Positions 6,681 through 20,928 of a DNA stretch of 64,000 nt are shown piece after piece. The notes under the pieces were generated by a model that was not told the DNA's origin, ran no database searches, and saw nothing but the letters and a program-made list of their open reading frames with translations. How positions within the stretch are numbered: position 1 is the stretch's first letter; every line of letters starts with the position of its first letter. Origin of the DNA: a virus (taxonomy: Duplodnaviria > Caudoviricetes); IMG/VR virus record IMGVR_UViG_3300037484_000235, positions 96,001 to 160,000 of that record; one strand, 5' to 3'. The position numbers and the translations under genes were made by a program.

Positions 6681-6706
6681 AGCTCTAGTTCGGTTCGTGT
6701 TTCGAT

Positions 6707-7286: not shown

Positions 7287-7360
7287 GCCTCATGATGCGC
7301 TTGGAGCGCAGCCTCTCTGTCTAAGAGGTGAAGCCGGTTCGATTCCGACATGGGGCGCCA
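7287..7360 (+). tRNA. tRNA-Asp(GTC)
   Basis: cctct-ctGTCta-agagg, CCA. Confidence 0.85.
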
Positions 7361-7516
7361 AGATTTCGTCGGACGCCAATCCGATTGGGCCTTAGACCAC
7401 GACCCTTGGCGGGGTGAAACAGCACGCAGGGCTCACTGCCCTGTTGTCCGAGATGGTCGCTCGGTGGTTGGGTGTAACAGCCCGCGCCATGATGTAAAGG
7501 GCCCGAGATCTTGACT

Positions 7517-7592
7517 GCCATCCAAGCTAATCTGGTGAAAGCGCCGGTCTGAAGAATCGGAGAGCCTGGATCAAAACCAGGGGATGGCACCA
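7517..7592 (+). tRNA. tRNA-Phe(GAA)
   Basis: ccggt-ctGAAga-atcgg; T loop ATCAAAA atypical; CCA. Confidence 0.8.
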
Positions 7593-7679
7593 TGCGTTGG
7601 TCGTCTAAATGCCGTAAAGACGCTAGGCACTGATCCGGATCGGTGCCTGGAAATGCAGTCTCGCAAACTGCACGACGCA
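7593..7679 (+). ncRNA. tRNA-like RNA with closed, extended anticodon arm
   Basis: tgcgttg/cgacgca acceptor; D-like and T-like arms; middle arm ctaggcactgatc/gatcggtgcctgg. Confidence 0.6.
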
Positions 7680-7685
7680 GAAAAT

Positions 7686-7760
7686 GTCCTGTTCGGCTAA
7701 CGGAAGGCCCTCTGACCCTCAATCAGATGACGGTGGGTTCAACTCCCCCATGGGACGCCA
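7686..7760 (+). tRNA. tRNA-Glu(CTC), C33
   Basis: tctga-ccCTCaa-tcaga, CCA. Confidence 0.85.
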
Positions 7761-7762
7761 AT

Positions 7763-7837
7763 GCACTCGTAGCTCAGTGGAAGAGCTTCCGGCTTCGAAC
7801 CGGATGGCCGGGGGTTCAAATCCCTCCGGGTGCGCCA
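7763..7837 (+). tRNA. tRNA-Arg(TCG)
   Basis: tccgg-ctTCGaa-ccgga, CCA. Confidence 0.9.
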
Positions 7838-7849
7838 GTAGTGATCGAT

Positions 7850-7922
7850 GTCTTTGTAGCTCAGTGGATAGAGCAGGCGTTTCCTAAACGCAAGATCGGA
7901 GGTTCGATCCCTCCCAAAGACG
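7850..7922 (+). tRNA. tRNA-Arg(CCT)
   Basis: gcgt-ttCCTaa-acgc. Confidence 0.85.
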
Positions 7923-7925
7923 CTA

Positions 7926-8057
7926 GGGCAGATGCGGTGAGGACTACATAACAGGAACTCGGGGTCGCTGGTTCAAGTCCAGCCTGCCATCCTGGATGGC
8001 AGTAGCTCAGTCTGGTAGAGCACGAGTAAAAACCAATCTTCGCTAACCTTGCTGCCC
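7926..8057 (+). ncRNA. YrlA-type Y RNA (circularly permuted tRNA mimic)
   Basis: order: T arm (gctgg-TTCAAGT-ccagc), hairpin-closed acceptor (ctgccat/atggcag), D arm (gctc-agtctggta-gagc); actcg/cgagt stem leads to outer gggcag/ctgccc stem. Confidence 0.85.
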
Positions 8058-8066
8058 GAACTTTAT

Positions 8067-8142
8067 GGTGGCTGTAGCACAACGGTAGTGCGCCCGGCTG
8101 TGAACCGGGTTACGGAGGGTTCAACTCCCCCCAGTCACCCCA
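8067..8142 (+). tRNA. tRNA-His(GTG)
   Basis: cccgg-ctGTGaa-ccggg, G-1, CCA. Confidence 0.9.
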
Positions 8143-8149
8143 GATGTAT

Positions 8150-8224
8150 TGGCTCGTAGCTCAACGGGAGAGCACCCGGCTGATAACCGGGAGGTCGTGG
8201 GTTCGACTCCCACTGGGCCAACCA
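8150..8224 (+). tRNA. tRNA-Ile(GAT)
   Basis: cccgg-ctGATaa-ccggg, CCA. Confidence 0.9.
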
Positions 8225-8233
8225 GTTCGTTTG

Positions 8234-8306
8234 TGCGATGCGGCGGGGACGCCGTCCAGGCCTCATAAGCCAGGAATGCCAGGTTCAACTCCTGGGATCG
8301 CAACCA
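8234..8306 (+). tRNA. tRNA(CAT), atypical D arm
   Basis: ggc-ctCATaa-gcc, T arm, CCA. Confidence 0.7.
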
Positions 8307-8312
8307 AGTGAT

Positions 8313-8387
8313 TGCCCTGTAGCTCAACGGAAGAGCGCTGTCTCGACAAGGCAGAGGCCGTGGGTTCAACTCCCACTAGGGCAACCA
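8313..8387 (+). tRNA. tRNA-Val(GAC), C33
   Basis: ctgtc-tcGACaa-ggcag, CCA. Confidence 0.85.
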
Positions 8388-8391
8388 ACGA

Positions 8392-8462
8392 TGTTCTGTC
8401 TAGTTGGAAGGGGGCCCTAATCGCGAGGGGCCGCGCAGGTTCAAGTCCTGCCAGAGCAGCCA
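8392..8462 (+). ncRNA. degenerate tRNA-like RNA
   Basis: tgttctg/cagagca acceptor, intact T arm and CCA; no D stem, non-canonical anticodon loop. Confidence 0.5.
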
Positions 8463-8528
8463 AGCTCGCCTACCATGTGTGGGTGGAGTAACGGGGTCGT
8501 GTCCTCACGGGGACGGCCCCAGCTTTAT

Positions 8529-8603
8529 CGCGGGATGGAGAAGTGGTATCTCGTCGGGCTCATAACCCGGAGAACGCCGGTTCAAATCCGGCTCCCGCAA
8601 CCA
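8529..8603 (+). tRNA. initiator tRNA-fMet(CAT)
   Basis: C1:A72 mismatch, GGG/CCC anticodon stem, CCA. Confidence 0.9.
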
Positions 8604-8606
8604 AAT

Positions 8607-8683
8607 GGGGTCGTAGCTCAGTTGGGAGAAGCGCCTGCATCGCAAGCAGGAGGTCGTGAGTTCAAATCTCACCGATTCCACCA
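8607..8683 (+). tRNA. tRNA-Ala(CGC)
   Basis: G3:U70, cctgc-atCGCaa-gcagg, CCA. Confidence 0.9.
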
Positions 8684-8740
8684 TGTTTTAATAGTGGTTG
8701 ACTTACCATACTGAATGGTTCAACCTTCACCGTATCCACC

Positions 8741-9322
8741 ATGCTAGACACAGATCACCCTGAGGAAATTGTTTCCTCATCTTGGGATGGCCGTCCTCGA
8801 AGACTTGTTGCCAATCTTTGTGGTCATTGTCATGGCAGGTTCTTTGCCCCGAGACACACAACTGCAAAGTTCTGTTCTAAGACATGCTCCGACGAGTCAC
8901 AGAAGAACAAGACCGTTCTTGTTTGTGCCCAATGTAAAAGGTCTTTTGAGCGTGTTCCCAGTACCTTGAAGAACTCCCGGAGTGGGGTGAGATTCTGTCA
9001 GAGATCCTGTAAGGATGAGGCTCAAAGACTTGAGGGTCTCAAGGCCATACACCCTTCTCACTACGGGAGTGACATCACCCACAAGAAAGCTCTGATTAGG
9101 GATAGGGGACACAAGTGCGAGGTGTGTGGTTTCTCTCGGTGGCAAGGCAAGCCAATATCTCTGCACGTCGATCATGTCGACGGAAACCCTTATGACCACT
9201 CCCTAAGCAACCTTCGATTGATCTGTCCAAACTGTCATACCCAGACGCCAACTTATGGCGGCAGGAATAGAGGAAGGGGGAGAAAGTCGCGAAAGCTTCC
9301 GGATTGGAGTGACGTGAGGTGA
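8741..9322 (+). CDS. HNH endonuclease with Zn-ribbon N-terminus
   Basis: CEVC..LHVDHVDGN..NLRLICPNCH. Confidence 0.9.
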   Translation: MLDTDHPEEIVSSSWDGRPRRLVANLCGHCHGRFFAPRHTTAKFCSKTCSDESQKNKTVLVCAQCKRSFERVPSTLKNSRSGVRFCQRSCKDEAQRLEGLKAIHPSHYGSDITHKKALIRDRGHKCEVCGFSRWQGKPISLHVDHVDGNPYDHSLSNLRLICPNCHTQTPTYGGRNRGRGRKSRKLPDWSDVR

Positions 9323-9334
9323 TGGGGTGTTTTT

Positions 9335-9407
9335 CGGGGTGTAGCTCAAATGGGAGAGCTTTGGCGAACAGCCAAAGATCAGGGTTCGAATCCCTGCTAC
9401 CCGGCCA
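9335..9407 (+). ncRNA. tRNA-like RNA with 5-nt anticodon loop
   Basis: D arm gctc/gagc, tttggc-gaaca-gccaaa, T arm cagggTTCGAATccctg, CCA. Confidence 0.6.
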
Positions 9408-9541
9408 GTGTTGTGGAAATACTCGATGGGGATTACATTACCTGCTAAGTAATCGATCTGGGTTCGACTCCCAGGCGCTCCCGTAAGGGGGCGAGCCAGG
9501 GGCTAGAAAAACATCTCTGTCATCACTTGTTTCACAGCACT
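9407..9541 (+). ncRNA. YrlA-like RNA 2
   Basis: outer stem agtgttgtgg/tcacagcact; T arm ctggg-TTCGACT-cccag; acceptor closed by GTAA tetraloop; minimal D-like hairpin. Confidence 0.65.
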
Positions 9542-9551
9542 ACTTCTTTTC

Positions 9552-9692
9552 GTGGTGAATACCGCAGTGACTACATGGAAAACGGTTGCCGAAAGGCGTG
9601 TGGGCTTCGATACCCACCTCAGCCTCGCAAGGGCTGAGTGGCGGAATGGCAGACGCGACTGCAAATGTCACTGTGACCCCTCTTGTCACCAC
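9552..9692 (+). ncRNA. YrlA-like RNA 3 (class II tRNA-derived)
   Basis: gtggtga/tcaccac and cgcagtgac/gtcactgtg stems; variable arm gccGAAAggc, T arm, closed acceptor ctcagcc/ggctgag, Leu-type D arm. Confidence 0.8.
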
Positions 9693-9833
9693 ACTAACTT
9701 CGCATGGGCCCTACGGGGTCCATGTGCAGACGGGTCTCGTAGGTCGCGCCAGGCCCTACGAGCTGGAAGATAGGGGACGCCACCCGCGAAAGCGATCAGC
9801 GGCCCCGAGTCCTGTCCGTGTTCCTGGTATTCT

Positions 9834-9908
9834 GGGGCTGTAGCTCAGTTGGGAGAGCGTCTCCATGGCATGGAGAAGGTCAAGGGTTCGATTCCCTTCA
9901 GCTCCACC
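9834..9908 (+). tRNA. tRNA-Ala(GGC)
   Basis: G3:U70, tctcc-atGGCat-ggaga. Confidence 0.9.
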
Positions 9909-10067
9909 GTAAGGGTAGTTCAAGTTGCGGTCGCGTACCGCACGGGGACGTAGGACAACCACAAGTCTGTGCACAGGTCGGTGGGAAGATCACGCGACGT
10001 GAGAGCTGCCTTCCAATAGAAGGTGAACGCAGGCGGAAACCCTGCCCCTTACGACAATTTCAAACAT

Positions 10068-10143
10068 GGGGACGTAGCTCAGCTGGGAGAGCGCGGGCTT
10101 TGCAAGCCTGAGGTCGCAGGTTCAATCCCTGTCGTCTCCACCA
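10068..10143 (+). tRNA. tRNA-Ala(TGC)
   Basis: cgggc-ttTGCaa-gcctg, CCA. Confidence 0.9.
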
Positions 10144-10144
10144 A

Positions 10145-10238
10145 GGTGTAGGATTGCTAATCGGTAGGCAGGGAGGCTACAGGCTGACGAGCCTGGTACG
10201 GCCACCCGTATTGCAGGTTCAACTCCTGCCCAGCACCC
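10145..10238 (+). ncRNA. long-variable-arm tRNA-like RNA without canonical anticodon loop
   Basis: acceptor ggtgtagg/ccagcacc, caggct-gacg-agcctg, variable arm gtacgg/ccgtat, T arm. Confidence 0.55.
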
Positions 10239-10243
10239 CGTGT

Positions 10244-10318
10244 GCCCTCGTAGCTCAGTGGGAGAGCACCACATTGGTAATGTGGGGGTCGCCGGTTCAA
10301 TCCCGGCCGAGGGCTCCA
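10244..10318 (+). tRNA. tRNA-Thr(GGT)
   Basis: ccaca-ttGGTaa-tgtgg, CCA. Confidence 0.9.
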
Positions 10319-10328
10319 AGTTCGTTTT

Positions 10329-10399
10329 GCGGGCATGGTCAAGTGGCTTGGCCCTAGGCTTCCAACCTAGAGACGCGAGTTCGATTCTCGCTGCCCGCT
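10329..10399 (+). tRNA. tRNA-Gly(TCC)
   Basis: ctagg-ctTCCaa-cctag. Confidence 0.9.
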
Positions 10400-10514
10400 C
10401 AAATGTTCGTTCCGTTCGGAGGTGGTTTGATCAGGCCAAGTGACGCAAGACTAGCTCCGGGGCTATGATCTCGGTGCGTTACCGATTGAGCTACCTCCGA
10501 ACGGAACGACGAGT

Positions 10515-10589
10515 GCGGGTGTGGCGCAGTGGTAGCGCATCAGCTTCCCATGCTGAATGTCGCGGGTTCGACTCCCGCCACCCGCTCCA
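10515..10589 (+). tRNA. tRNA-Gly(CCC)
   Basis: tcagc-ttCCCat-gctga, CCA. Confidence 0.9.
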
Positions 10590-10680
10590 GGTTGAATGCC
10601 ACGTCGGGAGTACATCCCTATACGATAAACCCTCTCGACAACCGTGCAGACTAGTGCTGCACACCTTGTCAACCTTTCAC

Positions 10681-10755
10681 GACGCGGTCCTTCTGGCGGA
10701 AGGCAGCAGATTGCAACCCTGCTTGAGGTGAGTTCGATTCTCACCCGCGTCTCCA
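10681..10755 (+). tRNA. tRNA-Cys(GCA)
   Basis: loop ttGCAac, U73, CCA. Confidence 0.85.
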
Positions 10756-10760
10756 CCAAT

Positions 10761-10837
10761 GCGGCAATAGCTTAGTGGGAGAGCTACCCTGTCCTGAATA
10801 GGCGAGGGTGACATGGGTTCGATCCCCGTTTGCTGCA
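10761..10837 (+). ncRNA. tRNA-like RNA with extended anticodon arm
   Basis: gcggcaa/ttgctgc acceptor, D and T arms normal; accct/agggt encloses 14 nt. Confidence 0.6.
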
Positions 10838-11246
10838 TCGGTTTCAACTATGGGGGCAGGGAGACCTGCTACCCTAGACACCGCCCTTAACTGGGCCAGC
10901 CTAGTTAGCAACTAGGTGGTGGTGTATGCTGGACGGTTGTGGGAGTACTAGTCCAGGGGAGAGCATGAACCCAACGAAGAGGATCGGGTAGACTCTGGTC
11001 CGCACAAGTTTGTATGGCGTGCGTCTCGGGGAACACCCAGGCAGATGCCTCCTGGCACGGTGATACACACCCTAGACGTGCCATCTAACGCCGTTCCCCT
11101 TCGGGGGTTCATGGAACCGAGTCCGTCTTCGGGCGGCTTGGGTGCGAGCGGATTCGCATAGGAAAAGATTCGAAGCGCCGCTGCTGTCGAAGACACAGGT
11201 CGGGGTGTCGACCGAGCCCTGACACGTAGCTAAAGAGTCGGTCTAT

Positions 11247-11321
11247 GCACTCGTAGTTCAGGGGAAGAACTCCCGTCTTCTAAGCGGGTTGTCGGGGGTT
11301 CGAATCCTCCCGGGTGCGCCA
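11247..11321 (+). tRNA. tRNA-Arg(TCT)
   Basis: cccgt-ctTCTaa-gcggg, CCA. Confidence 0.9.
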
Positions 11322-11331
11322 CAAGGTCAAT

Positions 11332-11407
11332 GTCCGTATAGTGAAACTGGATATCACGCATCTCTACGAAAGATGTATTGCAGGTTCGAATCCTGCTATG
11401 GGCGCCA
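11332..11407 (+). tRNA. tRNA-Arg(ACG)
   Basis: catct-ctACGaa-agatg, CCA. Confidence 0.9.
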
Positions 11408-11409
11408 AT

Positions 11410-11485
11410 GTCTCTGTAGTGAAACGGATCATCACGCGGGCCTCCGAAGCCCTTATTGCTGGTTCGAATCCAGCCAGAGACGCCA
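11410..11485 (+). tRNA. tRNA-Arg(CCG)
   Basis: gggc-ctCCGaa-gccc, CCA. Confidence 0.9.
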
Positions 11486-11493
11486 AGTACAAT

Positions 11494-11568
11494 CCCTCCG
11501 TCCAGCGGGTCTGGGGACGCGCTTCATAAGCGTGCTTGCGAGCGGTTCGAGTCCGCCCGGTGGGACCA
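11494..11568 (+). tRNA. tRNA(CAT) Met/Ile2
   Basis: cgcgc-ttCATaa-gcgtg, CCA. Confidence 0.75.
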
Positions 11569-11903
11569 TTCTCTGTGCAGAGCCGCTGACGACACGTCAG
11601 CATGGCGCAGTACAAGTCTGCATAGACGGGTGTGGAACTCGGACTGGTCGGATGCTGGTGAGAAGACCAGCTAAGCGCAGAGGATGAACACGTTTGAGTG
11701 CGTCTTGACTGATTCAAGTTCAAGACAGCCTGCCAGCAATCAGTTGCTGACTGTCAACCTGCCGATCTCATACAAGGGACACCTAGTGTCGGCCTTCAGA
11801 TGCGTCGCTTTGCGGCTCCTCTGACTGGAAGCGTACTAGGGCGGTCACACAGTGACCGGGTGAGTGTTGTCTCAATCTATCCTAGATCATTCTCGGGATC
11901 TTT

Positions 11904-11978
11904 CGGGGTGTAGCGCAGTGGTAGCGCGTCTGTTTCGGGAACAGAAAGTCGTCGGTTCGATCCCGGCCACCCCGACCA
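11904..11978 (+). tRNA. tRNA-Pro(CGG)
   Basis: tctgt-ttCGGga-acaga, CCA. Confidence 0.9.
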
Positions 11979-12077
11979 CAACATCGTCAGCCACTTCAGC
12001 GCCCCTCGGGGAAGTCTGTTGCGTGTTGATGATGGGTCACCCCCTGGGCGCGTCCGGGCTAGGGTGACTGTGTTTCT

Positions 12078-12152
12078 CTGGGTGTAGCGAAGTGGTATCG
12101 CGCTCGGTTTGGGGCCGAGAAATCGCTGGTTCGATCCCAGCCACTCAGACCA
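12078..12152 (+). tRNA. tRNA-Pro(TGG)
   Basis: ctcgg-ttTGGgg-ccgag, CCA. Confidence 0.9.
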
Positions 12153-12180
12153 CAACATCGCTCTCACCTCGGTTTGGGCG

Positions 12181-12249
12181 GTGGGCTTCACCTCTGTGTC
12201 GGCCGCACGGGGTGGGCTTCACCTCTGTGTCGGCCGCACGGGGTGGGCT
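12181..12249. repeat. 31-bp tandem repeat (2 full copies + partial)
   Basis: gtgggcttcacctctgtgtcggccgcacggg x2 then gtgggct. Confidence 0.9.
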
Positions 12250-12259
12250 GTGATTTTCT

Positions 12260-12334
12260 CGGGGCGTGGCGAAGTGGTATCGCGCTCGGCTGGGGGTCGA
12301 GAGATCGCAGGTTCGATCCCTGTCGCCCCGACCA
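12260..12334 (+). tRNA. tRNA-Pro(GGG)
   Basis: ctcgg-ctGGGgg-tcgag, CCA. Confidence 0.9.
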
Positions 12335-12585
12335 CTCTGGTTCGATTGGATCCTCGACCAGAGCCCAACCCTGTCAGGAGTCTGCCGTTAGGAGACGGCA
12401 CAGAACAAGCCGGGACATAGTGTACGGCAACACAATCCGGCAAGTCCGGATAAAAGCGATTCAATTCCGCGCGTCTCGGGGAAGTCTGAGGTGTGTGCTA
12501 CACACCTGACGGGGAAGGGAACTTTTTGCTGGTGAATCATGTAATCTCCCGGGGGTCATCCGTTACACTGGTGAAGGAAGCAACC

Positions 12586-12747
12586 ATGAAGCCCTACGAC
12601 ATCGACCGAAAGCGCCACGAGACTTGCCGCTACGGGTGCTGCACGAACCCTCAGGGCAGCAAGAAGCACCTCGCGACACGTCGCCGTCAGAAGCGGTCTT
12701 CCAGGGCGCATGGGCGCCAGGAGATCCGGGAGACCACGGCGTCATGA
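12586..12747 (+). CDS. small basic protein
   Basis: SD GAAGGAAG, MKPYDIDRKRHETCRYGCC.., ATGA-coupled to next ORF. Confidence 0.6.
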   Translation: MKPYDIDRKRHETCRYGCCTNPQGSKKHLATRRRQKRSSRAHGRQEIRETTAS

Positions 12748-13073
12748 ACAACGACCGACCCACGACACTTGCAGAGTGGCTCGTTTCCGAAGAGAAGGCG
12801 CCTGACCAAAGTAAGCTGGCTGCGTGGCTCGTCTCTGACGAGGACGAGACGCCTGACCAAAGCAAGCACGCGTTCCACATGGGGTGGGTCCGGGCAGGTT
12901 GCTTGAAGAAGCATGGCATCACAGCAGCCACCCGGCGCCAGGCCCGTAAGGCTGCGGCCCGGTGCGAGGCAACGGACTTCATGGCCGGATGGTACGTCCG
13001 GCAGCTCGCTGACTTCCTGGGATGCTGGGGACCAATCTCCCAACTCGATGTACGGGGCGTGAACCGCTCCTGA
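12744..13073 (+). CDS. hypothetical protein with internal duplication
   Basis: LAEWLVSEEKAPDQSK / LAAWLVSDEDETPDQSK repeat. Confidence 0.6.
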   Translation: MNNDRPTTLAEWLVSEEKAPDQSKLAAWLVSDEDETPDQSKHAFHMGWVRAGCLKKHGITAATRRQARKAAARCEATDFMAGWYVRQLADFLGCWGPISQLDVRGVNRS

Positions 13074-13102
13074 ACCGCTCCTGACGTGTTCGGATGTTCC
13101 AT

Positions 13103-13323
13103 ACCTCTGTAGCGCAACGGAAGCGCGTCGGAAAAACGAAGCCGATATCGTAAAAGACGCCGTACCACCTGCTACCCTGAATCCAAATGGGATAGGGGGT
13201 GTGGGGAACCCCCAAAGGTTGCAGAAGCACCGAATGGCTTGGAGACAGGTCACTAGGGAAGCGCGGTTTCCTAAGAAGGGGGTTTGGGTGTGGATGAAGT
13301 GGGTTCGACTCCCACCAGGGGTG
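13103..13323 (+). ncRNA. tRNA frame with large insert replacing anticodon arm
   Basis: acctctg/caggggt acceptor, gcgc-aacggaa-gcgc D arm, gtggg-TTCGACT-cccac T arm separated by about 170 nt. Confidence 0.65.
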
Positions 13324-13330
13324 CTAAAAA

Positions 13331-13406
13331 CCGCTCTTAGTTCAATCGGACTCAGAACCCCCGTCTCATAAACGGGTATGTCTCGGTTCGAATCCGGGAG
13401 AGCGGA
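13331..13406 (+). tRNA. tRNA(CAT) Met/Ile2
   Basis: cccgt-ctCATaa-acggg. Confidence 0.85.
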
Positions 13407-13419
13407 CAAATAGGGTGCT

Positions 13420-13614
13420 GTGATGATCGACTTCAATGCAGAGTACAGGCATCGACGGAAGGGTTTCCGTGTGATCGTAGGGGAGCCCGCTTGGTGGGAC
13501 ACCATGGAAGCTAACCGGGTTGTGGTCTACAAGTTGGGGGCCATGTCTGGACCTCTGCACTGGGTGATGAAACGATCGTCGTTCGAGCGGTTGTACGAAG
13601 TCATGCGCGCGTAA
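13420..13614 (+). CDS. small hypothetical protein
   Basis: 64-aa ORF; stop codon lies inside tRNA-Val. Confidence 0.55.
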   Translation: MMIDFNAEYRHRRKGFRVIVGEPAWWDTMEANRVVVYKLGAMSGPLHWVMKRSSFERLYEVMRA

Positions 13615-13679
13615 CTCAGTGGAAGAGTGTCTCCTTTACACGGAGAATGTCGGGGGTTCGATCCCCTCCGCGCGTACCA
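13605..13679 (+). tRNA. tRNA-Val(TAC)
   Basis: tctcc-ttTACac-ggaga, CCA. Confidence 0.9.
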
Positions 13680-13764
13680 AAAGACCACCCTTTGGTGGCA
13701 AAGTACCGGACGGGAGGTAGGTCTCCGGGGAATACCTCGGGGACTCCTTCCGATCTTGGAACAT

Positions 13765-13849
13765 GTGAGAGTGGTGGAATGGCAGTCACGCTGGGCTAAG
13801 GACCCAGTGCCCCCAACGGGGCGTGCGGGTTCGACTCCCGCCTTTCACA
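13765..13849 (+). tRNA. tRNA-Leu(AAG)
   Basis: ctggg-ctAAGga-cccag, long variable arm. Confidence 0.85.
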
Positions 13850-13867
13850 CAAAGTGCAGTGCAACAT

Positions 13868-13955
13868 GCTGGGGTGGCGAAATGGCAGACGCACCAGGTT
13901 CAGAACCTGGCGGGGTTTAAACCTCATGGGGGTTCAAGTCCCCCCCTCAGCACCA
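13868..13955 (+). tRNA. tRNA-Leu(CAG)
   Basis: ccagg-ttCAGaa-cctgg, CCA. Confidence 0.9.
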
Positions 13956-13967
13956 AAGAGTACACAT

Positions 13968-14052
13968 GCAAGATTGGCGAAACTGGCAGACGCTACGGGC
14001 TGAGAGTCCGTCGGGTAATACCGTGAGGGTTCGACTCCCTCATCTTGCACCA
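13968..14052 (+). tRNA. tRNA-Leu(GAG)
   Basis: acggg-ctGAGag-tccgt, CCA. Confidence 0.9.
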
Positions 14053-14059
14053 GTAGTGA

Positions 14060-14135
14060 GGGAGCGTAGCCCAACGGCAGAGGCAGTGCATTTAGGGTGC
14101 ACTCAGTGTGGGTTCGAATCCCACCGTTCCTACCA
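14060..14135 (+). tRNA. tRNA-Leu(TAG), short variable loop
   Basis: gtgca-ttTAGgg-tgcac, 5-nt variable loop, CCA. Confidence 0.85.
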
Positions 14136-14138
14136 AAT

Positions 14139-14223
14139 GCCCCGGTGGCGAAACGGCAAACGCGGTGGATTTAAAATCCGCTGCCGAAAGGTGTTGCGGG
14201 TTCGACTCCCGCTCGGGGCACCA
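14139..14223 (+). tRNA. tRNA-Leu(TAA)
   Basis: gtgga-ttTAAaa-tccgc, CCA. Confidence 0.9.
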
Positions 14224-14231
14224 AGATGTAT

Positions 14232-14317
14232 GCGGGCGTGGCGGAATGGCAGACGCACTGGTTTCAAAAATCAGCGGGGGAAACCTCATGAGGGTCCGAC
14301 TCCCTCCGCCCGTACCA
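14232..14317 (+). tRNA. tRNA-Leu(CAA)
   Basis: ctggt-ttCAAaa-atcag, CCA. Confidence 0.9.
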
Positions 14318-14416
14318 ATCTTTCTCTGGGGTATCATGTAATGGGCCTATCCTCATCCGTTAGTTGAGTGAGGATTCAACAGTCAACGTTCGTCACAAAG
14401 GAAAGGCAGGTAGACA

Positions 14417-14947
14417 ATGCATAAGACGCTTGTTCTCGATCAGGGCTACCAGCCTCACCGCGTGGTGAGTTGGCAGCGAGCCGTCACGATGTGGTGGGAC
14501 GGCAAGTGTGAGATCGTCGAGGAGTATGACGAAGACATCCGGAGCGTGACCTTCACGATCAAGATGCCTGCTGTAGTCAGACTTCTTCAGCGGGTTCGGG
14601 GGAAGAAGCAGGCTGTCAAGTTCTCGCGGATCAACGTCGCGACACGGGACAACATGACTTGTCAGTACTGTTCTGACAAGCTTCCGCTCTCGAAGCTCAC
14701 CTACGATCACGTTGTCCCAAGATCTCAGGGTGGAAAGACTCTGTGGGAGAACATCGTGATGGCCTGTTACGGCTGCAACGAGAAGAAGGCCGACCGCACT
14801 CCTGCTCAGGCGAAGATGCCTTTGAAGAAGGTGCCGGTGAAGCCAGCCTTCCTTCCGGTGATCTCGATGCGTTTCGAGACGGGTTCCTGCCCGGATCTGT
14901 GGCGCTCTTGGATCTACTGGAACACCGCCCTCGAAGAGGGCAGCTAG
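14417..14947 (+). CDS. HNH endonuclease (McrA/HNH_5-like)
   Basis: TLVLDQGYQP..RDNMTCQYC..TYDHVVPRSQGG..WENIVMACYGCNEKK. Confidence 0.92.
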   Translation: MHKTLVLDQGYQPHRVVSWQRAVTMWWDGKCEIVEEYDEDIRSVTFTIKMPAVVRLLQRVRGKKQAVKFSRINVATRDNMTCQYCSDKLPLSKLTYDHVVPRSQGGKTLWENIVMACYGCNEKKADRTPAQAKMPLKKVPVKPAFLPVISMRFETGSCPDLWRSWIYWNTALEEGS

Positions 14948-15173
14948 GGAGTTTGGGCCTGACATGGTAGGCCCCAGGCAGGACGGTGTCTGCGCTCTGC
15001 AAAACCTGTGGGCCTCATGATCCCACGGGTCCGTCATACAACTTGGAGGTCCGGCTAGGTCCGGACAGCCTCTGCTGGATAAGGCATCGTGGGCGATGGT
15101 AGGAGCCACACGAAGACCCAGCCCCTTTTCAGATCTTCTGGCCCCCCGATGAATTCTGGGGTCCGTACAAAAT

Positions 15174-15250
15174 CGGAGTGTGGCGCAGCCTGGTAGCGCA
15201 TCTGCTTTGGGAGCAGAGGGTCGCAGGTTCAAATCCTGTCGCTCCGACCA
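15174..15250 (+). tRNA. tRNA-Pro(TGG), second copy
   Basis: tctgc-ttTGGga-gcaga, CCA. Confidence 0.92.
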
Positions 15251-15259
15251 ACGTTGAAT

Positions 15260-15347
15260 GGAAACTGAACTAGACTGGGTCTGGGCCCGCTTGGAAAGCG
15301 GTGAGATATCGCAAGGTGTTGAGGTTCAATTCCTCCGGTTTCCGCCA
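15260..15347 (+). tRNA. tRNA-Ser(GGA)
   Basis: ccgc-ttGGAaa-gcgg, long variable arm, GCCA. Confidence 0.85.
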
Positions 15348-15348
15348 T

Positions 15349-15468
15349 GAGTCGTGCTTGGTGCTTGGGAAGCTAGCTCCCACCTTCGGGTTCGATTCCC
15401 GACGGGTAAGGCAAATGGGGCCCTACTTAGAACTGGTAAGGAAGAGGGTTCGATCCCCTCGCGACTCA
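15349..15468 (+). ncRNA. tRNA-like RNA with two T arms
   Basis: gagtcgt/gcgactc closes tcggg-TTCGATT-cccga and gaggg-TTCGATC-ccctc. Confidence 0.55.
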
Positions 15469-15579
15469 CCCAACTAGAAAGGTTCCAGCATCCGTATTCC
15501 AAAATATTCGAGAATACGTTGGAAAGGGCTCATGAAAACACCTTGCCCCTGGATCAGATAGGGGTTAGCATGCGGAGGT

Positions 15580-15966
15580 ATGCCGTATGCTAACCCAACC
15601 CAACAGCGAGAGTACCAGGTAAGGTGGCTGAGAAAGCGACGCGAGGAATGGTTGAAGGCTCACGGACCCTGCGTGGCTTGTCGCTCTACGGTTGATTTAG
15701 AGGTCGATCATGTAGATCCAAACCTGAAGCTCGACCATAACGTGTGGTCGTGGTCAGAGTGCCGCAGGGCAGAGGAGTTGGCGAAGTGTCAAATCCTCTG
15801 CAAACGGTGCCACATGAAGAAGACACTTGAGCAAAGACCTAGTACTCAGCACGGATGTGCTCAGATGTATCAGAAGTACAAGTGTCGGTGTGATGTCTGC
15901 CGCTCATGGAAACAGGCTTCAGACGCAAGATACAGAAGTGTTCGAAAATCGAAGTTCGGAAGATAA
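15580..15966 (+). CDS. HNH endonuclease
   Basis: CVACRSTVDLEVDHVDP..CQILCKRCH plus C-terminal CRCDVC. Confidence 0.9.
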   Translation: MPYANPTQQREYQVRWLRKRREEWLKAHGPCVACRSTVDLEVDHVDPNLKLDHNVWSWSECRRAEELAKCQILCKRCHMKKTLEQRPSTQHGCAQMYQKYKCRCDVCRSWKQASDARYRSVRKSKFGR

Positions 15967-16047
15967 ATCAGCCAGGGGCTGAACCTGCTTTGAACACAGT
16001 GTGGGCCTGTCAAAGGGTCTGGGTTTCGAGTACTCTGTCTTCCGCCA
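15958..16047 (+). tRNA. tRNA-Ser(TGA)
   Basis: ggaagat/gtcttcc acceptor, loop ttTGAac, long variable arm; weak anticodon stem. Confidence 0.75.
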
Positions 16048-16049
16048 AC

Positions 16050-16229
16050 ATGCCAGTCGAATTCAAATGTGTGGGTGGGGCCCATCTCCCGGTGGGGTGC
16101 GGGGCTGTATTCACATGGCCTGAGCCACCGCCGCACAGCGATCGGTACTGCCACAAGTGCGGCAACCTCTACGTCCAGTGGGTGAACTACGAGAAGTGGA
16201 TTGCCTGGCTGGCCAAGTCCGGTGGTTGA
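16050..16229 (+). CDS. small Zn-finger protein
   Basis: CxxxxxxxxxC..YCHKCGNLY. Confidence 0.6.
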   Translation: MPVEFKCVGGAHLPVGCGAVFTWPEPPPHSDRYCHKCGNLYVQWVNYEKWIAWLAKSGG

Positions 16230-16286
16230 TCCGCCTTTGTTGTGGTCATACCTGTGCAGAGCCACAGGACTACCGAAACGCGTGAG

Positions 16287-16571
16287 TTACAGAATAGGTA
16301 GTTCCGTTACAGGATCTTGAAACTCTATCCTGAAGTCAGAGAGTTCCGATTCCGTGAGAACGGTGAGAAGCTGTGTTAGTGCACCCTGTTGGAGGGTAGA
16401 CATCTCACGTTTGTTCGGGAATTCCCGAGCTATGAAGATTCGGCTGCTAGATTCAGAGAAGGTTCTCTCAAACCTGGCAGTAATCAAAGCTTGTGATTCT
16501 CTGGATAGAGAGTAGGTGTCCCCGTCCCGATTGGAGGATGTGTAGATAACGAGGGTCTCTTTTGTCGCCAT
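16287..16571 (-). CDS. hypothetical protein
   Basis: MATKETLV.. start chosen outside the tRNA-Ser overlap. Confidence 0.55.
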   Translation of the reverse strand: MATKETLVIYTSSNRDGDTYSLSRESQALITARFERTFSESSSRIFIAREFPNKREMSTLQQGALTQLLTVLTESELSDFRIEFQDPVTELPIL

Positions 16572-16587
16572 GGGAGACCATACCTTT

Positions 16588-16676
16588 GGAAGGTGAATCG
16601 GCCAGGGGCCGAGCTGGTTTCGAAAGCCATGCGGGCCCATCAAGGGTCTGGGGATCAAGACCTCCGCCTTCCGCCA
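16588..16676 (+). tRNA. tRNA-Ser(CGA)
   Basis: tggt-ttCGAaa-gcca, long variable arm, GCCA. Confidence 0.85.
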
Positions 16677-16873
16677 ATGTAACACCTGCGCTTTTCCCTG
16701 AGTTGAAGCTCATCGCAAAGCACCATGTAGGCTCCGTGGTAAGCGGTGTCCGGGGTGGTGTTCTCGTCTTCAGGCAAGTCATCGTCATCCATTTCGGAAC
16801 GGGGCCTGCCCCCTTCGAGGTGTGAGACTAGGGCTTCGATTGTGGCCTTGAGTTGATTCTTGGTGAGTCGCAT
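16655..16873 (-). CDS. small acidic hypothetical protein
   Basis: 72-aa ORF with protein-like composition. Confidence 0.45.
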   Translation of the reverse strand: MRLTKNQLKATIEALVSHLEGGRPRSEMDDDDLPEDENTTPDTAYHGAYMVLCDELQLREKRRCYIGGRRRS

Positions 16874-16929
16874 ACTCTCTCATGCGCGTGAGCACGGCTC
16901 TGGTTGCAGGAGGGCGTAAGTAAAAGTTC

Positions 16930-16990
16930 GGGGAGGTGCTCGCGGGAGCTAGTGCACTAAAGCCAGATTCGACTTCTGGCCTCTCCACCG
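16930..16990 (+). ncRNA. mini tRNA-Ala-like RNA lacking anticodon
   Basis: ggggagg/cctctcc with G3:U70, A73; D and T arms; anticodon arm reduced to tagtgcacta. Confidence 0.65.
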
Positions 16991-16992
16991 TT

Positions 16993-17079
16993 GGAAGCTG
17001 AATTGGTGATGGCACCAAGCTTGATTGCTAATCAATGCGTGCCTACGGGCATGGGGTTCGAATCCTCCGGTTTCCGCCA
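16993..17079 (+). tRNA. tRNA-Ser(GCT)
   Basis: ttga-ttGCTaa-tcaa, long variable arm, GCCA. Confidence 0.85.
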
Positions 17080-17134
17080 AGCAATCGTGTAAGAAGTCCT
17101 CTCCCGGCCGTTAGTGGGGTGAGGAAAGAACATC

Positions 17135-17300
17135 GGGGATTTAGCACAATGGTAGTGCTCTCCAACCGGGTGATACCGGCAGGGGTGGTCTAGAGGCGAG
17201 GAGATCCGACGGAGGGGTAGCTGCCCGAGTCGACTCCAAGAATCTAGGGCGGTGGGGCGAAAGCTCCACGGAGTGGGTTCGAGTCCCACAATCTCCACCA
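17135..17300 (+). ncRNA. Ala-identity tRNA frame with ~105-nt insert
   Basis: ggggatt/aatctcc (G3:U70), ACCA end, D arm gcac/gtgc, ctcc/ggag stem enclosing the insert. Confidence 0.7.
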
Positions 17301-17459
17301 CGAGATCAGACGTGCATCACTCTTAATGGTGTACTGAGGAGTGGGGTGCCGCTAGCGTACTACGTTGGCTTGGAGGGAACTGATCATCCTTCTGGGCCAT
17401 CGCGGACAGGCCGATGGCTGACGTTTAGGGACATCTTGTTTGCGGTCTCGTGCTTTTCG

Positions 17460-17571
17460 CGTTCGGTTCGGGGAGAGCTTCGATTGAGCTGGTTTGTACA
17501 GACTAGGTGAAATAGTCCGACGCTCAGGGATACCAGGGCGTTGCTTGATCAGTCTCTCCCCCAACCGAACG
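17460..17571 (+). ncRNA. long-stem RNA, Y-RNA candidate upstream of rsr
   Basis: cgttcggtt/aaccgaacg, ggggagag/ctctcccc and gattgagc/gcttgatc stems with two apical hairpins. Confidence 0.5.
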
Positions 17572-17578
17572 ACAGTTT

Positions 17579-17653
17579 GCGGCTGAGGTGCCTACGGTAG
17601 CACGCGGCGTTGCCAATGCTGAGGCGCGGGTTCGACTCCCGCCAGCCGCTCCA
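17579..17653 (+). tRNA. tRNA-Gly(GCC)
   Basis: cggcg-ttGCCaa-tgctg, CCA. Confidence 0.9.
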
Positions 17654-17691
17654 CGAAGGAATCCTGTTCAGTTGTCAGTGGCACAGATCAG

Positions 17692-19359
17692 ATGAAAGAG
17701 GGGAATTACATCATGGCAAATCGAAAGCTTTTCGCGTCCGCTCCGGCTGGTCGGGTAGCACCGCCCACCGACACTGTGAACTCTGCTGGTGGTCGAGCCT
17801 ACAAGGCTGGTCCGAAGGAGGCGCTCGCCCAGTACGTGGCGACCGGCTGCCTTGGGGCAACCTTCTACGCTTCGGCTGAGGAGCAGCTCGATGAGATCCT
17901 CAAGCTCGCGTCCGACGTGAGCCCGGAGTTCGTCGCACAGGCGGCCGTCTACGGACGTCGGTCTGCGTTCATGAAGGACACTCCGGCGCTTCTGCTCGCG
18001 CACCTGGCGACCCGTGGTCCAGAGGGTCTTGCTGCGCTCAAGGCGGCATTCAACCAGGTCGTAGACAACCCGAAGATGCTCCGCACCTTCGTGCAGATCA
18101 TGCGCTCGGGCAAGGTCGGCCGGAAGTCACTCGGCACCGCACCCAAGACCCTGGTCAAGGCGTGGTTCGATGCACGTTCTGACGTGCAGCTCTTCCGTGC
18201 GACCGGTGACAAGCCGTCGCTTGCGGACGTGATCAAGATGGTCCACCCCAAGCCCCAGAACGCGGCTCGGAAGGCCCTCTACGCCCTCCTGGTGGGCAAG
18301 AGCTACGACCTCGATGCGTGCGATGCACTCGTCCAGGAGTTCGAGGCGTGGAAGAAGGATCCGTCGCGGCCAGTACCGGACGTTCCCTTCCTCATGCTCA
18401 CGAACGTCCAGCTCGACAAGAAGCAGTGGGTGGCTATCGCCCGGTCGGCTTCCTGGCAGACCGCACGCATGAACCTCAACACGTTCCTGCGTCACGGTGT
18501 GTTCGAGGACAAGGCAATGATCAAGGTCATTGCGGCCAAGCTGCGGGATGAGTCGGAGATTGCTCATGCACGGGTCTTCCCGTACCAGCTTCTCGTCGCG
18601 TACCGGAACGTCTCTGGCGTTCCGATGGAGATCCAGAGCGCCCTCCAGGACGCGATGGAGATCGCAACGAAGAACGTTCCTGTGATCGATGGGACCGTCG
18701 CTGTCTTCCCAGACGTGTCGGGTTCCATGTGCAGCCCGGTCACGGGTGCACGGGGTTCCGCAACCACCAAGGTCGAGTGCAAGGACGTAGCGGCGCTAGT
18801 GGCCGCTACGATTCTCCGGCGCAACCCTGGTGCGCGCGTGGTTCCCTTCAAGGAGGACGTGATCAACCTTCGGCTCAACCCGAAGGACAGCATCGTCACC
18901 ATCGCGGAGCAGATCGCGAAGTGTGGCTCGGGCGGCACCAACTGCTCGGCACCACTGCGCCTCCTGAACTCTGAGAAGGCCAAGGCGGACCTTATCGTCT
19001 ACGTCTCAGACAACGAGTCGTGGATGGATCCAAACGTCTCCCTCAACTCGTACTCCTCGGGGTACACCAGCTCGCCAACGAGCATGATGGCGGAGTGGGA
19101 GAAGTTCCGCGTCCGCAACCCGGCGGCAAAGCTCGCCTGCATCGACCTCGCGCCCAACGGTTCTCGTCAGGCACCAACTCGCAAGGACATCCTGAATGTC
19201 GGAGGCTTCTCTGACGAGGTCTTCACCCTGCTCTCCGAGTTCCACAAGGGCTCGGGAGGCGACCACTGGGCGAAGAAGATCGGGAGTGTTCAGCTCGGTC
19301 GTGAAGTCCCAGTCGCACCCGTGAAGCCCACGGGTGGAACTGATTGGGTGACCCTCTAA
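17692..19359 (+). CDS. rsr: Ro60/TROVE-VWA RNA-binding protein
   Basis: DTVNSAGGRAY..TGCLGATFYASAEEQL TROVE N-terminus; SWQTARMNLNTF; VWA MIDAS DVSGSM; GGTNCSAP; SDNESW. Confidence 0.95.
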   Translation: MKEGNYIMANRKLFASAPAGRVAPPTDTVNSAGGRAYKAGPKEALAQYVATGCLGATFYASAEEQLDEILKLASDVSPEFVAQAAVYGRRSAFMKDTPALLLAHLATRGPEGLAALKAAFNQVVDNPKMLRTFVQIMRSGKVGRKSLGTAPKTLVKAWFDARSDVQLFRATGDKPSLADVIKMVHPKPQNAARKALYALLVGKSYDLDACDALVQEFEAWKKDPSRPVPDVPFLMLTNVQLDKKQWVAIARSASWQTARMNLNTFLRHGVFEDKAMIKVIAAKLRDESEIAHARVFPYQLLVAYRNVSGVPMEIQSALQDAMEIATKNVPVIDGTVAVFPDVSGSMCSPVTGARGSATTKVECKDVAALVAATILRRNPGARVVPFKEDVINLRLNPKDSIVTIAEQIAKCGSGGTNCSAPLRLLNSEKAKADLIVYVSDNESWMDPNVSLNSYSSGYTSSPTSMMAEWEKFRVRNPAAKLACIDLAPNGSRQAPTRKDILNVGGFSDEVFTLLSEFHKGSGGDHWAKKIGSVQLGREVPVAPVKPTGGTDWVTL

Positions 19360-19367
19360 CCAAATGG

Positions 19368-19468
19368 TGGTCTTTTTCGTCCCCTACACAAGTCGAAGTC
19401 ACAACTCCAAGTGACGCCACGCCAGAAGTCGAGCCTGGGGCGGTTTGTGTGGGGGGCGAAGAAGGTCA
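19368..19468 (+). ncRNA. Y RNA candidate downstream of rsr (YrlB position)
   Basis: about 26-bp terminal stem followed by GTCGAAG (GNCGAAN0-1G motif) and two apical hairpins. Confidence 0.7.
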
Positions 19469-19473
19469 TCTAT

Positions 19474-19548
19474 GCCGGTGATGCTCCATGGCGGGGCACC
19501 CATTTCGTACGTGGGACTCAGAGGGTTCGATTCCCTCCATCGGCTCCA
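19474..19548 (+). tRNA. tRNA-Thr(CGT)
   Basis: cccat-ttCGTac-gtggg, CCA. Confidence 0.85.
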
Positions 19549-19694
19549 AAGCAAACAGAAGGGATCTACATGCAACGCCGCCTAAGGTTCGCGCTCCTCA
19601 CTACACCACTGCCACGTCTTCTCGTACTCGTCCTAGCGCCCCTTGCTGGACTTCGACTTGACTGGGCCATTGGTAAGTTCTAGACATTGCATAC

Positions 19695-19766
19695 GCCCTC
19701 TTAGCTCAGTGGTAGAGCACCGGTTTTGTAAACCGGGGGTCGTGGGTTCAATTCCCATCGAGGGCT
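19695..19766 (+). tRNA. tRNA-Thr(TGT)
   Basis: ccggt-ttTGTaa-accgg. Confidence 0.9.
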
Positions 19767-19778
19767 CCGAGTTAGTGT

Positions 19779-20552
19779 TCATGCTTCCGCAGGCTCGTAG
19801 GAGTGGGCCATCTGATTTTCACTCAGATTGTAGCGGGTTCGAATCCCGTCGGGAGTACCAAGATGAGGGACGGATCGCGGCTTTGAGGGCTTCGTCGTGA
19901 AGGTGGGTTCCGAAAAGTGTTCGGCGTCTCCTTTGAGAGCGAGTTGCATCCACACTTCGAGTTTCTGCCGTAGTTCGGTCCCCTTTCGTACACCTAGACT
20001 TCCAGTTCCTTTTGTTTGTGTTCTTCGTGTGGACTTAGAAACTGTAGCTTTGGTCATTTGAATTTGGTCCTCACTCAAGCCTAGAGTCTCGGACCACCAT
20101 TTTGGTATCTCAGGAGAAGGCTCGTGAACCTTGACTTTGAACACAATTCTGTCTTTGGGGATACCCACGATCTCCAAGAAGCGTATAAAGGCACGGTGGA
20201 CGAGAGGGTCACAATTTGAGATGCTTGCATCTGCTGGACTCATCTTGCTCCCTTCCCCAATATACAGACCAAGACCCAACATGAAATCACTTCTTAGAGA
20301 GAAACTGGACCAATCTTCTCTCGCCTTGGTGTAGTATGCCTCCCACCTTTGAACCCTGTTACTCTGTACGACTTCCAGTGCTCGTTCGAGGTTTCCAACA
20401 TTGCGCTCTTCCGGAGACCTGCTAGTCTCTACATCTCTTACCCAGACAGAAACCGAAGACTTGGATACCCCAAGCCGGGCTGCAATGTACCCCAGGCTGA
20501 AATCTTGGGCTCTTAGTTCTCTGGCACATTCTCTAGCAATGCCTTTTGTCAT
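19779..20552 (-). CDS. HTH plus LAGLIDADG-like endonuclease
   Basis: SLGYIAARLGVSKSSVSVWVR HTH; GLGLYIGEGSK..ISNCDP..VFKVKVHE. Confidence 0.7.
   Translation of the reverse strand: MTKGIARECARELRAQDFSLGYIAARLGVSKSSVSVWVRDVETSRSPEERNVGNLERALEVVQSNRVQRWEAYYTKAREDWSSFSLRSDFMLGLGLYIGEGSKMSPADASISNCDPLVHRAFIRFLEIVGIPKDRIVFKVKVHEPSPEIPKWWSETLGLSEDQIQMTKATVSKSTRRTQTKGTGSLGVRKGTELRQKLEVWMQLALKGDAEHFSEPTFTTKPSKPRSVPHLGTPDGIRTRYNLSENQMAHSYEPAEA
19783..19860 (+). tRNA. tRNA-Glu(TTC)
   Basis: tctga-ttTTCac-tcaga, CCA. Confidence 0.85.
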
Positions 20553-20627
20553 GTGGTGAACATAAGTCGAACCCTGGTTACTGTCAAGGACGCGTCGCAA
20601 ATAGAACCTCAAGGCCAAGGTAGTTGA

Positions 20628-20702
20628 TCGGGAGTAGAACAATGGCAGTTCAGCGGCCTTTGAAGCCGTCTGTTGGGGGTTCGAATCCCTCCTCCCGAAC
20701 CA
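20628..20702 (+). tRNA. tRNA-Gln(TTG)
   Basis: gcggc-ctTTGaa-gccgt, CCA. Confidence 0.9.
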
Positions 20703-20854
20703 AGATGGAAAAGGAACCACACGTGGAAGAAGCACACCCAATCCTAGTGGGGAAAGGGTTCGTCTACGTGCCATTCCCTTTCGTGGAATGGTTATGTGTT
20801 CCTGAGGAAGAGGTTTTTCAGAAGAGGTTTCCTCTTGTGGGCCCAAGTTTCCGA

Positions 20855-20928
20855 TCGGGGATAGATCAACGGTAGATCAGCGTCCTTTGAAGTCGCGTAT
20901 GAGGGTTCGATTCCCCCTCCCCGAACCA
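20855..20928 (+). tRNA. tRNA-Gln(TTG), second copy
   Basis: loop ctTTGaa, CCA. Confidence 0.85.

Follow-up and report, generated by a model that had tools for sequence, protein, structure and literature searches.

What kind of RNA is encoded by a 166-base gene (17135–17300, + strand) that sits within the tRNA cluster of a huge phage, has the two ends of an alanine-type tRNA and carries a long structured insert where the anticodon loop would be? The original prediction for this locus read it as an alanine-identity, non-decoding RNA with a tmRNA-like message. We weighed that reading against three others, namely a Y RNA-type partner of the Ro60/Rsr protein encoded downstream, a tRNA gene interrupted by an intron or in decay, and a separate small family derived from tRNA-Ala. 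Positions refer to the window, the whole stretch of 64,000 nucleotides that was analysed, which corresponds to positions 96001–160000 of a 252.5-kb IMG/VR phage record estimated to be about 57% complete; positions in the record itself are called genome positions.

An alanine-type tRNA frame in a huge-phage tRNA array

ARAGORN found 46 tRNA genes on a single strand between 6.3 and 21 kb of the window, 40 of them confirmed by Rfam, and 36 of the 46 (6336–20928, + strand) encode their 3' CCA. This phage contrasts sharply in CCA encoding with its close relatives: in the related contigs L170, L062, L179, L003 and L042 only 0–3 genes per contig have an encoded CCA. The array seems to lack serine tRNAs at the default setting of ARAGORN, and atypical tRNA-Ser genes with anticodons GGA, UGA, CGA and GCU (15260–17079, + strand) lie below that default threshold, while a fifth, weaker candidate (ACU, about 15394–15470) appeared only at the lowest setting tried. 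Three HNH endonuclease open reading frames (8741–9322, 14417–14947 and 15580–15966, + strand) are interspersed among the tRNA genes and are likely homing endonucleases that help to reshuffle the array. Neither a sigma-70-like promoter nor a terminator was detected in the flanks searched beside the Ala-type element.

All the predicted parts of the tRNA frame, namely the D and T arms, G3:U70, A73 and a CCA that belongs to the gene, are present in the element at the positions given (Table 1). The acceptor stem of 7 bp is made up of G1:C72, G2:C71, G3:U70, G4:C69, A5:U68, U6:A67 and U7:A66, and the D arm has a 4-bp stem with a 7-nt loop. The claim that a structured insert replaces the anticodon loop also holds, as the ~113 nt between the D and T arms form three hairpins, here called arms A, B and C. 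The proposed ccgg/ccgg hairpin proved to be the tip of arm A, which in this copy has a 6-nt loop without a usable anticodon and exceeds an anticodon arm in length, and the proposed gtggggcGAAAgctccac hairpin corresponds to arm C. The tip of arm B can be drawn with an internal loop GGAG/GA, a helix GGGU/GCCC and a loop AGCU, or alternatively with GGG/CCC closing a 7-nt loop GUAGCUG. Readings of arm B as a K-turn or a bulge-helix-bulge were discarded after by-eye inspection.

Table 1. Features of the Ala-type element in window coordinates, with the basis of each assignment
Feature	Position	Strand	Basis and remarks
Acceptor stem, 5' strand GGGGAUU	17135–17141	+	Sequence, fold, pair counts; G1–A5 invariant in 4/4 members
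U8, A9, D arm GCAC/AAUGGUA/GUGC, linker U	17142–17159	+	A14, G18, G19 and A21 present
Arm A, CUCC-AA-CCGG-GUGAUA-CCGG-CA-GGGG	17160–17185	+	Anticodon-arm position; folds
Arm B, irregular 66-nt hairpin	17186–17251	+	Variable-region position; folds
Arm B tip, GGAGGGGUAGCUGCCCGAG, invariant	17211–17229	+	Identical in 4/4 members
Arm C, hairpin GUGGGGC-GAAA-GCUCCAC	17252–17269	+	Class II long-variable-arm position; folds
Linker GGA preceding T stem	17270–17272	+	GG kept in 4/4 members
T arm GUGGG/UUCGAGU/CCCAC	17273–17289	+	Sequence, fold
Acceptor 3' strand AAUCUCC, A73, encoded CCA	17290–17300	+	Sequence; U70 and A73 invariant

The minimum-energy fold of the whole element is this tRNA frame with its three inner hairpins (-75.9 kcal/mol, z = -3.66), none of 200 shuffled sequences folded as well, and the insert folded alone gave z = -3.63. 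It is unlikely that the frame arose by chance, because a scan of both strands of the 252-kb genome (505 kb) for long tRNA frames, defined by a 5-bp T arm, a 7/7 acceptor stem, a 4-bp D stem, correct spacing and a span of 95–420 nt, returned only 7 matches. The insert is single-copy, and no repeat of it was found elsewhere in the phage's own genome, which speaks against a mobile element. A contig from an unrelated metagenome run matches 17206–17378 with 0 differences and so corroborates this part of the DNA independently.

Other tRNA-like RNAs were noticed in the same array. A second conserved tRNA-frame family of 220–266 nt is represented at 13103–13322 (+ strand) of the window and at L046:13862–14081 (-) and L051:17917–18182 (-), in three phages whose Rsr proteins are only 42–50% identical to that of this phage. 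Its members have a D arm, then a hairpin with the loop AAAAACGRAG and then a structured insert of ~170 nt containing the shared blocks AAGGUUGCRGA and GGGAAGCGCG, and Rfam gave no match to them, group I introns included. A 119-nt RNA (15349–15467, + strand) is conserved in two relatives (L042:4238–4356, +, and L062 about 1930–2045, +, where it lies directly 3' of the Ala-type element) and places an acceptor-like stem GAGUCGU/GCGACUC around two T-arm-like hairpins. Finally, a 61-nt mini tRNA-like frame at 16930–16990 (+ strand) has the same alanine-type acceptor end (GGGGAGG/CCUCUCC, with G3:U70 and A73, followed by CCG), a short D hairpin and a T arm, lacks an anticodon arm and was not found in the relatives.

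Homologues, covariation and descent

Homologues were sought with a covariance model built from the single window sequence (R1), against which ordinary tRNAs score no more than 33 bits, and with a later model built from four sequences (R2). Among 80 metagenome loci around homologues of Rsr, the sole strong match to R1 was L062:1787–1926, at 72.6 bits. In the window copy and the L062 copy, arm B ends in the same 19-mer, and a scan of IMG/VR for 15 bases of this 19-mer led to two further copies, both inside tRNA frames: L166:1668–1835 (-), on the 320-kb contig G016 (74.1 bits with R1), and L170:2079–2241, on the 222-kb contig G017 (56.1 bits with R1). The family thus consists of four members, the window copy and those of three other huge-phage contigs, with lengths of 140–168 nt. 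All four copies lie inside phage tRNA arrays and on the array strand. The order of neighbours in L062 matches that in the window (element, tRNA-Gly(GCC), rsr), and in G016 and G017 the element is immediately upstream of tRNA-Arg(UCU).

Broader searches did not enlarge the family. R2 identified no further members over 247 loci and no second copy in the phage's own genome. BLAST of the region against phage GenBank records gave nothing near, the sole distant match being a trivial one of 30 nt. Exact-pattern IMG/VR scans for lower arm B and for the junction of arms C and T had 0 matches, and a gapped pattern from the D arm to the T loop returned adjacent tRNA pairs only. In prokaryote genomes, the arm B 19-mer had 4 matches, which is about the chance expectation, and 0 of these lay in a tRNA frame according to R2. 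A looser core pattern matched IMG/VR 97 times; among the 80 matches listed, 77 were new and 0 of these fit R2, while the other 3 were loci already known. A pattern for the 5' frame recovered two known members and contig L185, which fails R2. Close relatives with Rsr 82–83% identical (L002/L003 and the G002 array) were without the element, whether at the syntenic place or in the whole record, so the element is dispensable and its distribution patchy.

RNAs of 92–96 nt that scored 38–45 bits with R2 were rejected as members, being class II-like tRNA-Ile(UAU) genes. These genes, with a long variable arm in the style of class II tRNAs, lie at L127:1813–1904, L109:201–295, L126:1769–1864 and L136:1759–1854 (+). 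In L127, L126 and L136 they are 600–700 nt upstream of rsr, and in L109 the gene is near the start of the retrieved stretch, with rsr beginning at 885.

The four sequences vary in a manner that preserves their helices. In the model-fitted alignment, which has only four members and therefore thin statistics, 95.4% of cells were paired and 22 of 52 pairs had changes on both sides; the observed covariation was reached by 0 of 500 shuffles, and slid controls gave 4–5 pairs. RNAalifold independently recovered the helices of the acceptor, of the D and T arms, of arms A and C and of the arm B tip, and 16 of its 39 pairs were compensatory; folding every member arm by arm produced the same hairpins. 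The four members do not differ in G1–A5 and U68–C72, which contain the G3:U70 wobble, in A73 or in the arm B tip, while pairs 6:67 and 7:66, the T stem, arm A, arm C and the helix beneath the arm B tip vary and yet stay paired. This last helix reads CGAC/GUCG, AGGC/GCUU, GAU/GUC and GGAC/GUUC in the four members; the lower helices of arm B differ in length between members. Compensatory changes occur in 5 of the 7 pairs of arm C and in 3 of the 5 pairs of the T stem, and a D-stem comparison across the four sequences gives GC, CG, AU and UG/CG. The loop sequence of arm C is not conserved; of the GAAA hairpin noted earlier, the hairpin form is therefore kept in the homologues and the sequence is not. 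Arm A exceeds an anticodon arm in length in every member, is a hairpin of 7–8 bp in the homologues, and has loops that are unrelated (GUGAUA, GCGA, an 11-nt loop and, in L170, UUUGCAC). The Levitt pair 15:48 is non-canonical in all four members. The family spans phage genomes whose Ro60 proteins, where both encode one, are only ~52% identical. The element is a real, conserved RNA family without an Rfam match.

The claim of alanine identity is borne out by the comparison, as G1–G4 with G3:U70 and A73 are invariant in the four divergent homologues, while pairs 6:67 and 7:66 next to them covary. For alanylation by AlaRS, G3:U70 in an acceptor helix is enough, as it is in minihelices and tmRNA. 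The exact keeping of a weak G3:U70 wobble while the other helices drift points to selection for charging, although constraints from RNase P or EF-Tu, rather than from AlaRS, could be part of the reason why the first five acceptor pairs do not vary. The CCA is encoded only in the window copy and is absent from the others, matching 0 of 26, 0 of 7 and 0 of 3 tRNA genes on their contigs; the 3' end of the element thus follows the local style of tRNA genes, as expected if it matures as a tRNA. By comparison of their sequences, the members descend from tRNA-Ala and have lost decoding, because the arm A loop of one of them (L170) is still UUUGCAC, as in the anticodon loop of tRNA-Ala(UGC), and is carried by a stem that is too long. 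A complete anticodon arm, with a 5-bp stem, a 7-nt loop, U33, NGC and R37, is present in no member, since only L170 has the loop and its stem has 7–8 bp. The second-best match of R2 in the phage's own genome is tRNA-Ala(GGC), and the acceptor sequence of the family is distinct from those of the resident tRNA-Ala genes and was not copied from them.

Weighing tmRNA, intron and Y RNA explanations

As a minimal tmRNA-like rescue RNA, the element would be charged with alanine and move into ribosomes that have stalled, where it would add either this residue or a very short tag encoded in the insert, a role that we consider very improbable. The likeness to tmRNA is that of two non-decoding mimics or descendants of tRNA-Ala, with G3:U70, A73, a T arm and a CCA end as in the tRNA-like domain of tmRNA, which hold extra structured RNA between the two halves of a tRNA frame. 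The invariant UAGCU/GCC also resembles the bases that precede the resume codon in the phage's own tmRNA (AGCU/GCC). The Rfam tmRNA model (RF00023) assigns 26.8 bits to 17200–17300; however, its threshold is 47, and the alignment takes GGAGAUC (A3:U70) as the 5' strand. The predicted frame GCA GGG GUG GUC UAG does exist in the insert, but a tmRNA-like message finds no backing in the homologues: no frame is conserved in the four members, AGVV with its stop is private to the window copy, and a reading from GCC meets no stop in two members and stops after 3 and 13 codons in the other two. ARAGORN -m, the check proposed earlier, does not report the element. The only tmRNA that it reports is a standard one-piece tmRNA at genome position 168034–168418 (+), outside the window, with the tag ANDNSYALTAIAA followed by a stop, and it has no sequence relation to the element. 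A relaxed run (-ps70) on 15201–17700 gave low-scoring permuted-type candidates only, one of which, on the opposite strand, overlaps the last 32 bases of the element. In contrast to tmRNA, the family has neither a conserved frame nor a resume codon with a stop, measures ~140–168 nt rather than ~350 nt, coexists with a separate normal tmRNA in this genome and has a true 4-bp D stem and an arm at the anticodon position in all four members, and a D stem and anticodon-position arm occupy the place of SmpB on tmRNA. A gene for SmpB was not found in the 252 kb of this genome (~57% complete), and no pseudoknots were predicted, though by folding tools that cannot predict them. It is also improbable, if not to the same degree, that the locus is a tRNA gene bearing an intron or insertion, whose removal yields a working tRNA, or a decaying tRNA-Ala pseudogene. 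With introns allowed, ARAGORN proposes a tRNA-Pro(AGG) with an 80-nt intron, but this solution has a mismatched stem and puts a class II arm on a proline tRNA. The retention of an alanine anticodon loop in L170 and the HNH endonuclease genes in the array could be expected from such a history, yet removing one segment never restores a canonical cloverleaf: whichever single stretch is deleted, a 5-bp anticodon stem accompanied by U33 as well as R37 does not result, which agrees with the original view of the RNA as non-decoding. Rfam gave no intron or ribozyme matches in the element, and the insert is smaller than group I introns, which have ~200 nt or more. Genes for EndA and RtcB were not found in the 252 kb of the ~57% complete genome, the insert occurs once in it, and the covariation together with the invariant 19-nt hairpin in four genomes argues against decay. 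A candidate joint spanning the insert, a 161-nt contig of run X7 that matched both frame ends with 102 other letters between them, was set aside; as its outer three acceptor bases do not pair, the simplest explanation is a pair of neighbouring tRNAs from another organism.

The gene rsr (17692–19359, + strand), which encodes a Ro60/Rsr homologue (vWA_Ro60, 7.7e-18; TROVE, 2.1e-7), starts 390 nt downstream of the element on the same strand, between tRNA-Gly(GCC) and tRNA-Thr(CGU). The Y RNAs that are bound by the Rsr proteins of bacteria and phages have their genes close by. Many of these RNAs (YrlA) mimic tRNA, and the YrlA of M. smegmatis undergoes RNase P cleavage and acquires CCA (Chen et al. 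2014, PMC4201824); a phage Ro60 accompanied by Y-like RNAs of phage origin has been documented as well (PMC12135203). The element might accordingly be a YrlA-like tRNA mimic of permuted topology that serves as a Y RNA-type partner of the phage protein, which we regard as unlikely; equally unlikely is the corresponding arrangement, in which the acceptor end stays open and Rsr is bound, and thereby linked to an exonuclease, by a helix at the anticodon or variable position. The layout in L062 is the same as in the window, in G016 rsr is found 5.3 kb downstream on the same strand, and the invariant UGCCCGAG resembles, on a by-eye reading, the metazoan GGUCCGA and bacterial GNCGAA motifs. The genome, moreover, has a canonical, full-length YrlA at 7925–8061 (+ strand), at 59 bits against an RF02553 threshold of 69. 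The element is like YrlA in its D/T elbow and acceptor stem and in having rsr nearby in 3 of 4 genomes, and the YrlA of M. smegmatis, too, finally has CCA and an acceptor stem that is open. The order of parts nevertheless differs: YrlA runs from the Rsr site through V, the T arm and a loop-closed acceptor stem to the D arm, and its RNA ends lie in the Rsr-binding stem, whereas the RNA ends of the family are, by sequence and fold, the acceptor stem. RF02553 has no match at 17135–17300, and GGCGAAAG, found in the arm C loop of the window copy, is absent from the three homologues, so that a GNCGAAN0-1G motif is not conserved. Among the loci that surround Rsr homologues, just 1 of the 80 from metagenomes and 0 of the 15 from viruses have the element. 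It lies within ~4 kb of rsr on the same strand in the window and in L062 only; in G016 and G017 its neighbour is tRNA-Arg(UCU) and not rsr, and in the array of G017 tRNA-Gly(GCC) is directly followed by tRNA-Thr, with no Rsr found in its 222 kb. As rsr itself sits inside the tRNA array, location in the array alone explains the proximity. Since few Rsr-encoding phages have the family and the contig of one member is without rsr, the element is only weakly linked to Rsr.

Homologues of the phage Rsr with 42–84% identity are encoded in many huge-phage contigs. The canonical YrlA is placed between tRNA-Arg(CCU) and tRNA-His, and there may be further Y-like RNAs, to which the orphan T arms found at 8435 and 9458 would belong. 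A long bulged stem at 17460–17571 (+ strand), just upstream of tRNA-Gly and rsr, has strands that resemble metazoan Y RNA stems (GCUUCGAUUG / UUGAUCAGUC) and is absent from L002 and L003; what is conserved in both of these contigs is the segment 17340–17450 (+ strand).

A non-decoding relative of tRNA-Ala and its possible roles

On balance, we favour the explanation that the element belongs to a small tRNA-Ala-derived family that is processed as a tRNA, probably charged with alanine and non-decoding, and whose conserved hairpin docks a partner. The processing, charging and docking that we infer would proceed as follows. Transcription of the RNA would take place along with that of the tRNA array, and the transcript would mature in the manner of a tRNA, with RNase P cutting at G1 and a 3' CCA that comes from the gene or is added. 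The alanyl-tRNA synthetase of the host, which needs only the G3:U70 acceptor helix, would then charge it. With an over-long arm A and no conserved anticodon, the charged RNA would be unable to decode, and the invariant arm B hairpin might dock a protein or RNA partner on a body that has the shape of Ala-tRNA and is possibly alanylated. The family has retained the full alanine identity set of the acceptor stem as well as the elbow of the D and T arms, and these are the features seen by AlaRS, RNase P, CCA-adding and elbow-binding enzymes.

Three leads come from inspection of the arm B tip only: its loop UAGCUG comes close to self-complementarity, the internal loop leaves GGAG exposed, and UGCCCGA is similar to Ro-binding motifs. 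A search for a base-pairing target of the arm B hairpin yielded two 11-nt complements in unrelated coding regions, which we judged to be chance matches. Genes for FemAB, LPG_synthase_C and AlaRS, like those for SmpB, RtcB and EndA, were not found in the 252 kb of this ~57% complete genome.

The favoured family has likenesses to several other RNAs. Its acceptor end, and the UUUGCAC loop of one member, are those of tRNA-Ala(UGC), and arm C stands in the place of the long variable arm of class II tRNAs, where it aligns with the variable arm of a phage tRNA-Ser. In contrast to both tRNA-Ala and class II tRNAs, the variable region of the family holds two arms, of which one measures 46–68 nt, the stem at the anticodon position has 7–10 layers instead of 5 bp, and there is no conserved anticodon. 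The stable RNAs C and D of phage T4 (species 1 and 2) are likewise small RNAs within a phage tRNA cluster. They are processed along with the cluster tRNAs and their function is unknown; to our knowledge, neither an alanine identity set nor a conserved extra hairpin has been described for them.

Few classes of tRNA mimics that keep a chargeable acceptor are known to us, namely tmRNA, the tRNA-like ends of plant viruses and some Y RNAs, and each class of this kind has revealed a distinct mechanism. A far-reaching reading, to which we give a low probability, would be that huge phages carry a second tRNA-Ala-derived RNA lineage, independent of tmRNA, that is alanylated, never decodes and uses its hairpin to bring a partner to the translation machinery or to take alanine from it. 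If this were true, the RNA might act as an mRNA-free rescue or alanine-tailing adaptor, as a non-ribosomal donor of alanine or as a decoy for a host factor that targets tRNA-Ala. Several conserved RNA families, missed by the default tRNA search of ARAGORN and by the Rfam gathering thresholds, occupy the apparent gaps of phage tRNA arrays. The family described here is a compact one, in which the alanine identity set has been kept exactly, the anticodon discarded and an invariant hairpin added, and it makes a clear case, open to testing, that phage infection involves a use of alanyl-tRNA chemistry, or of the shape of tRNA-Ala, other than decoding.
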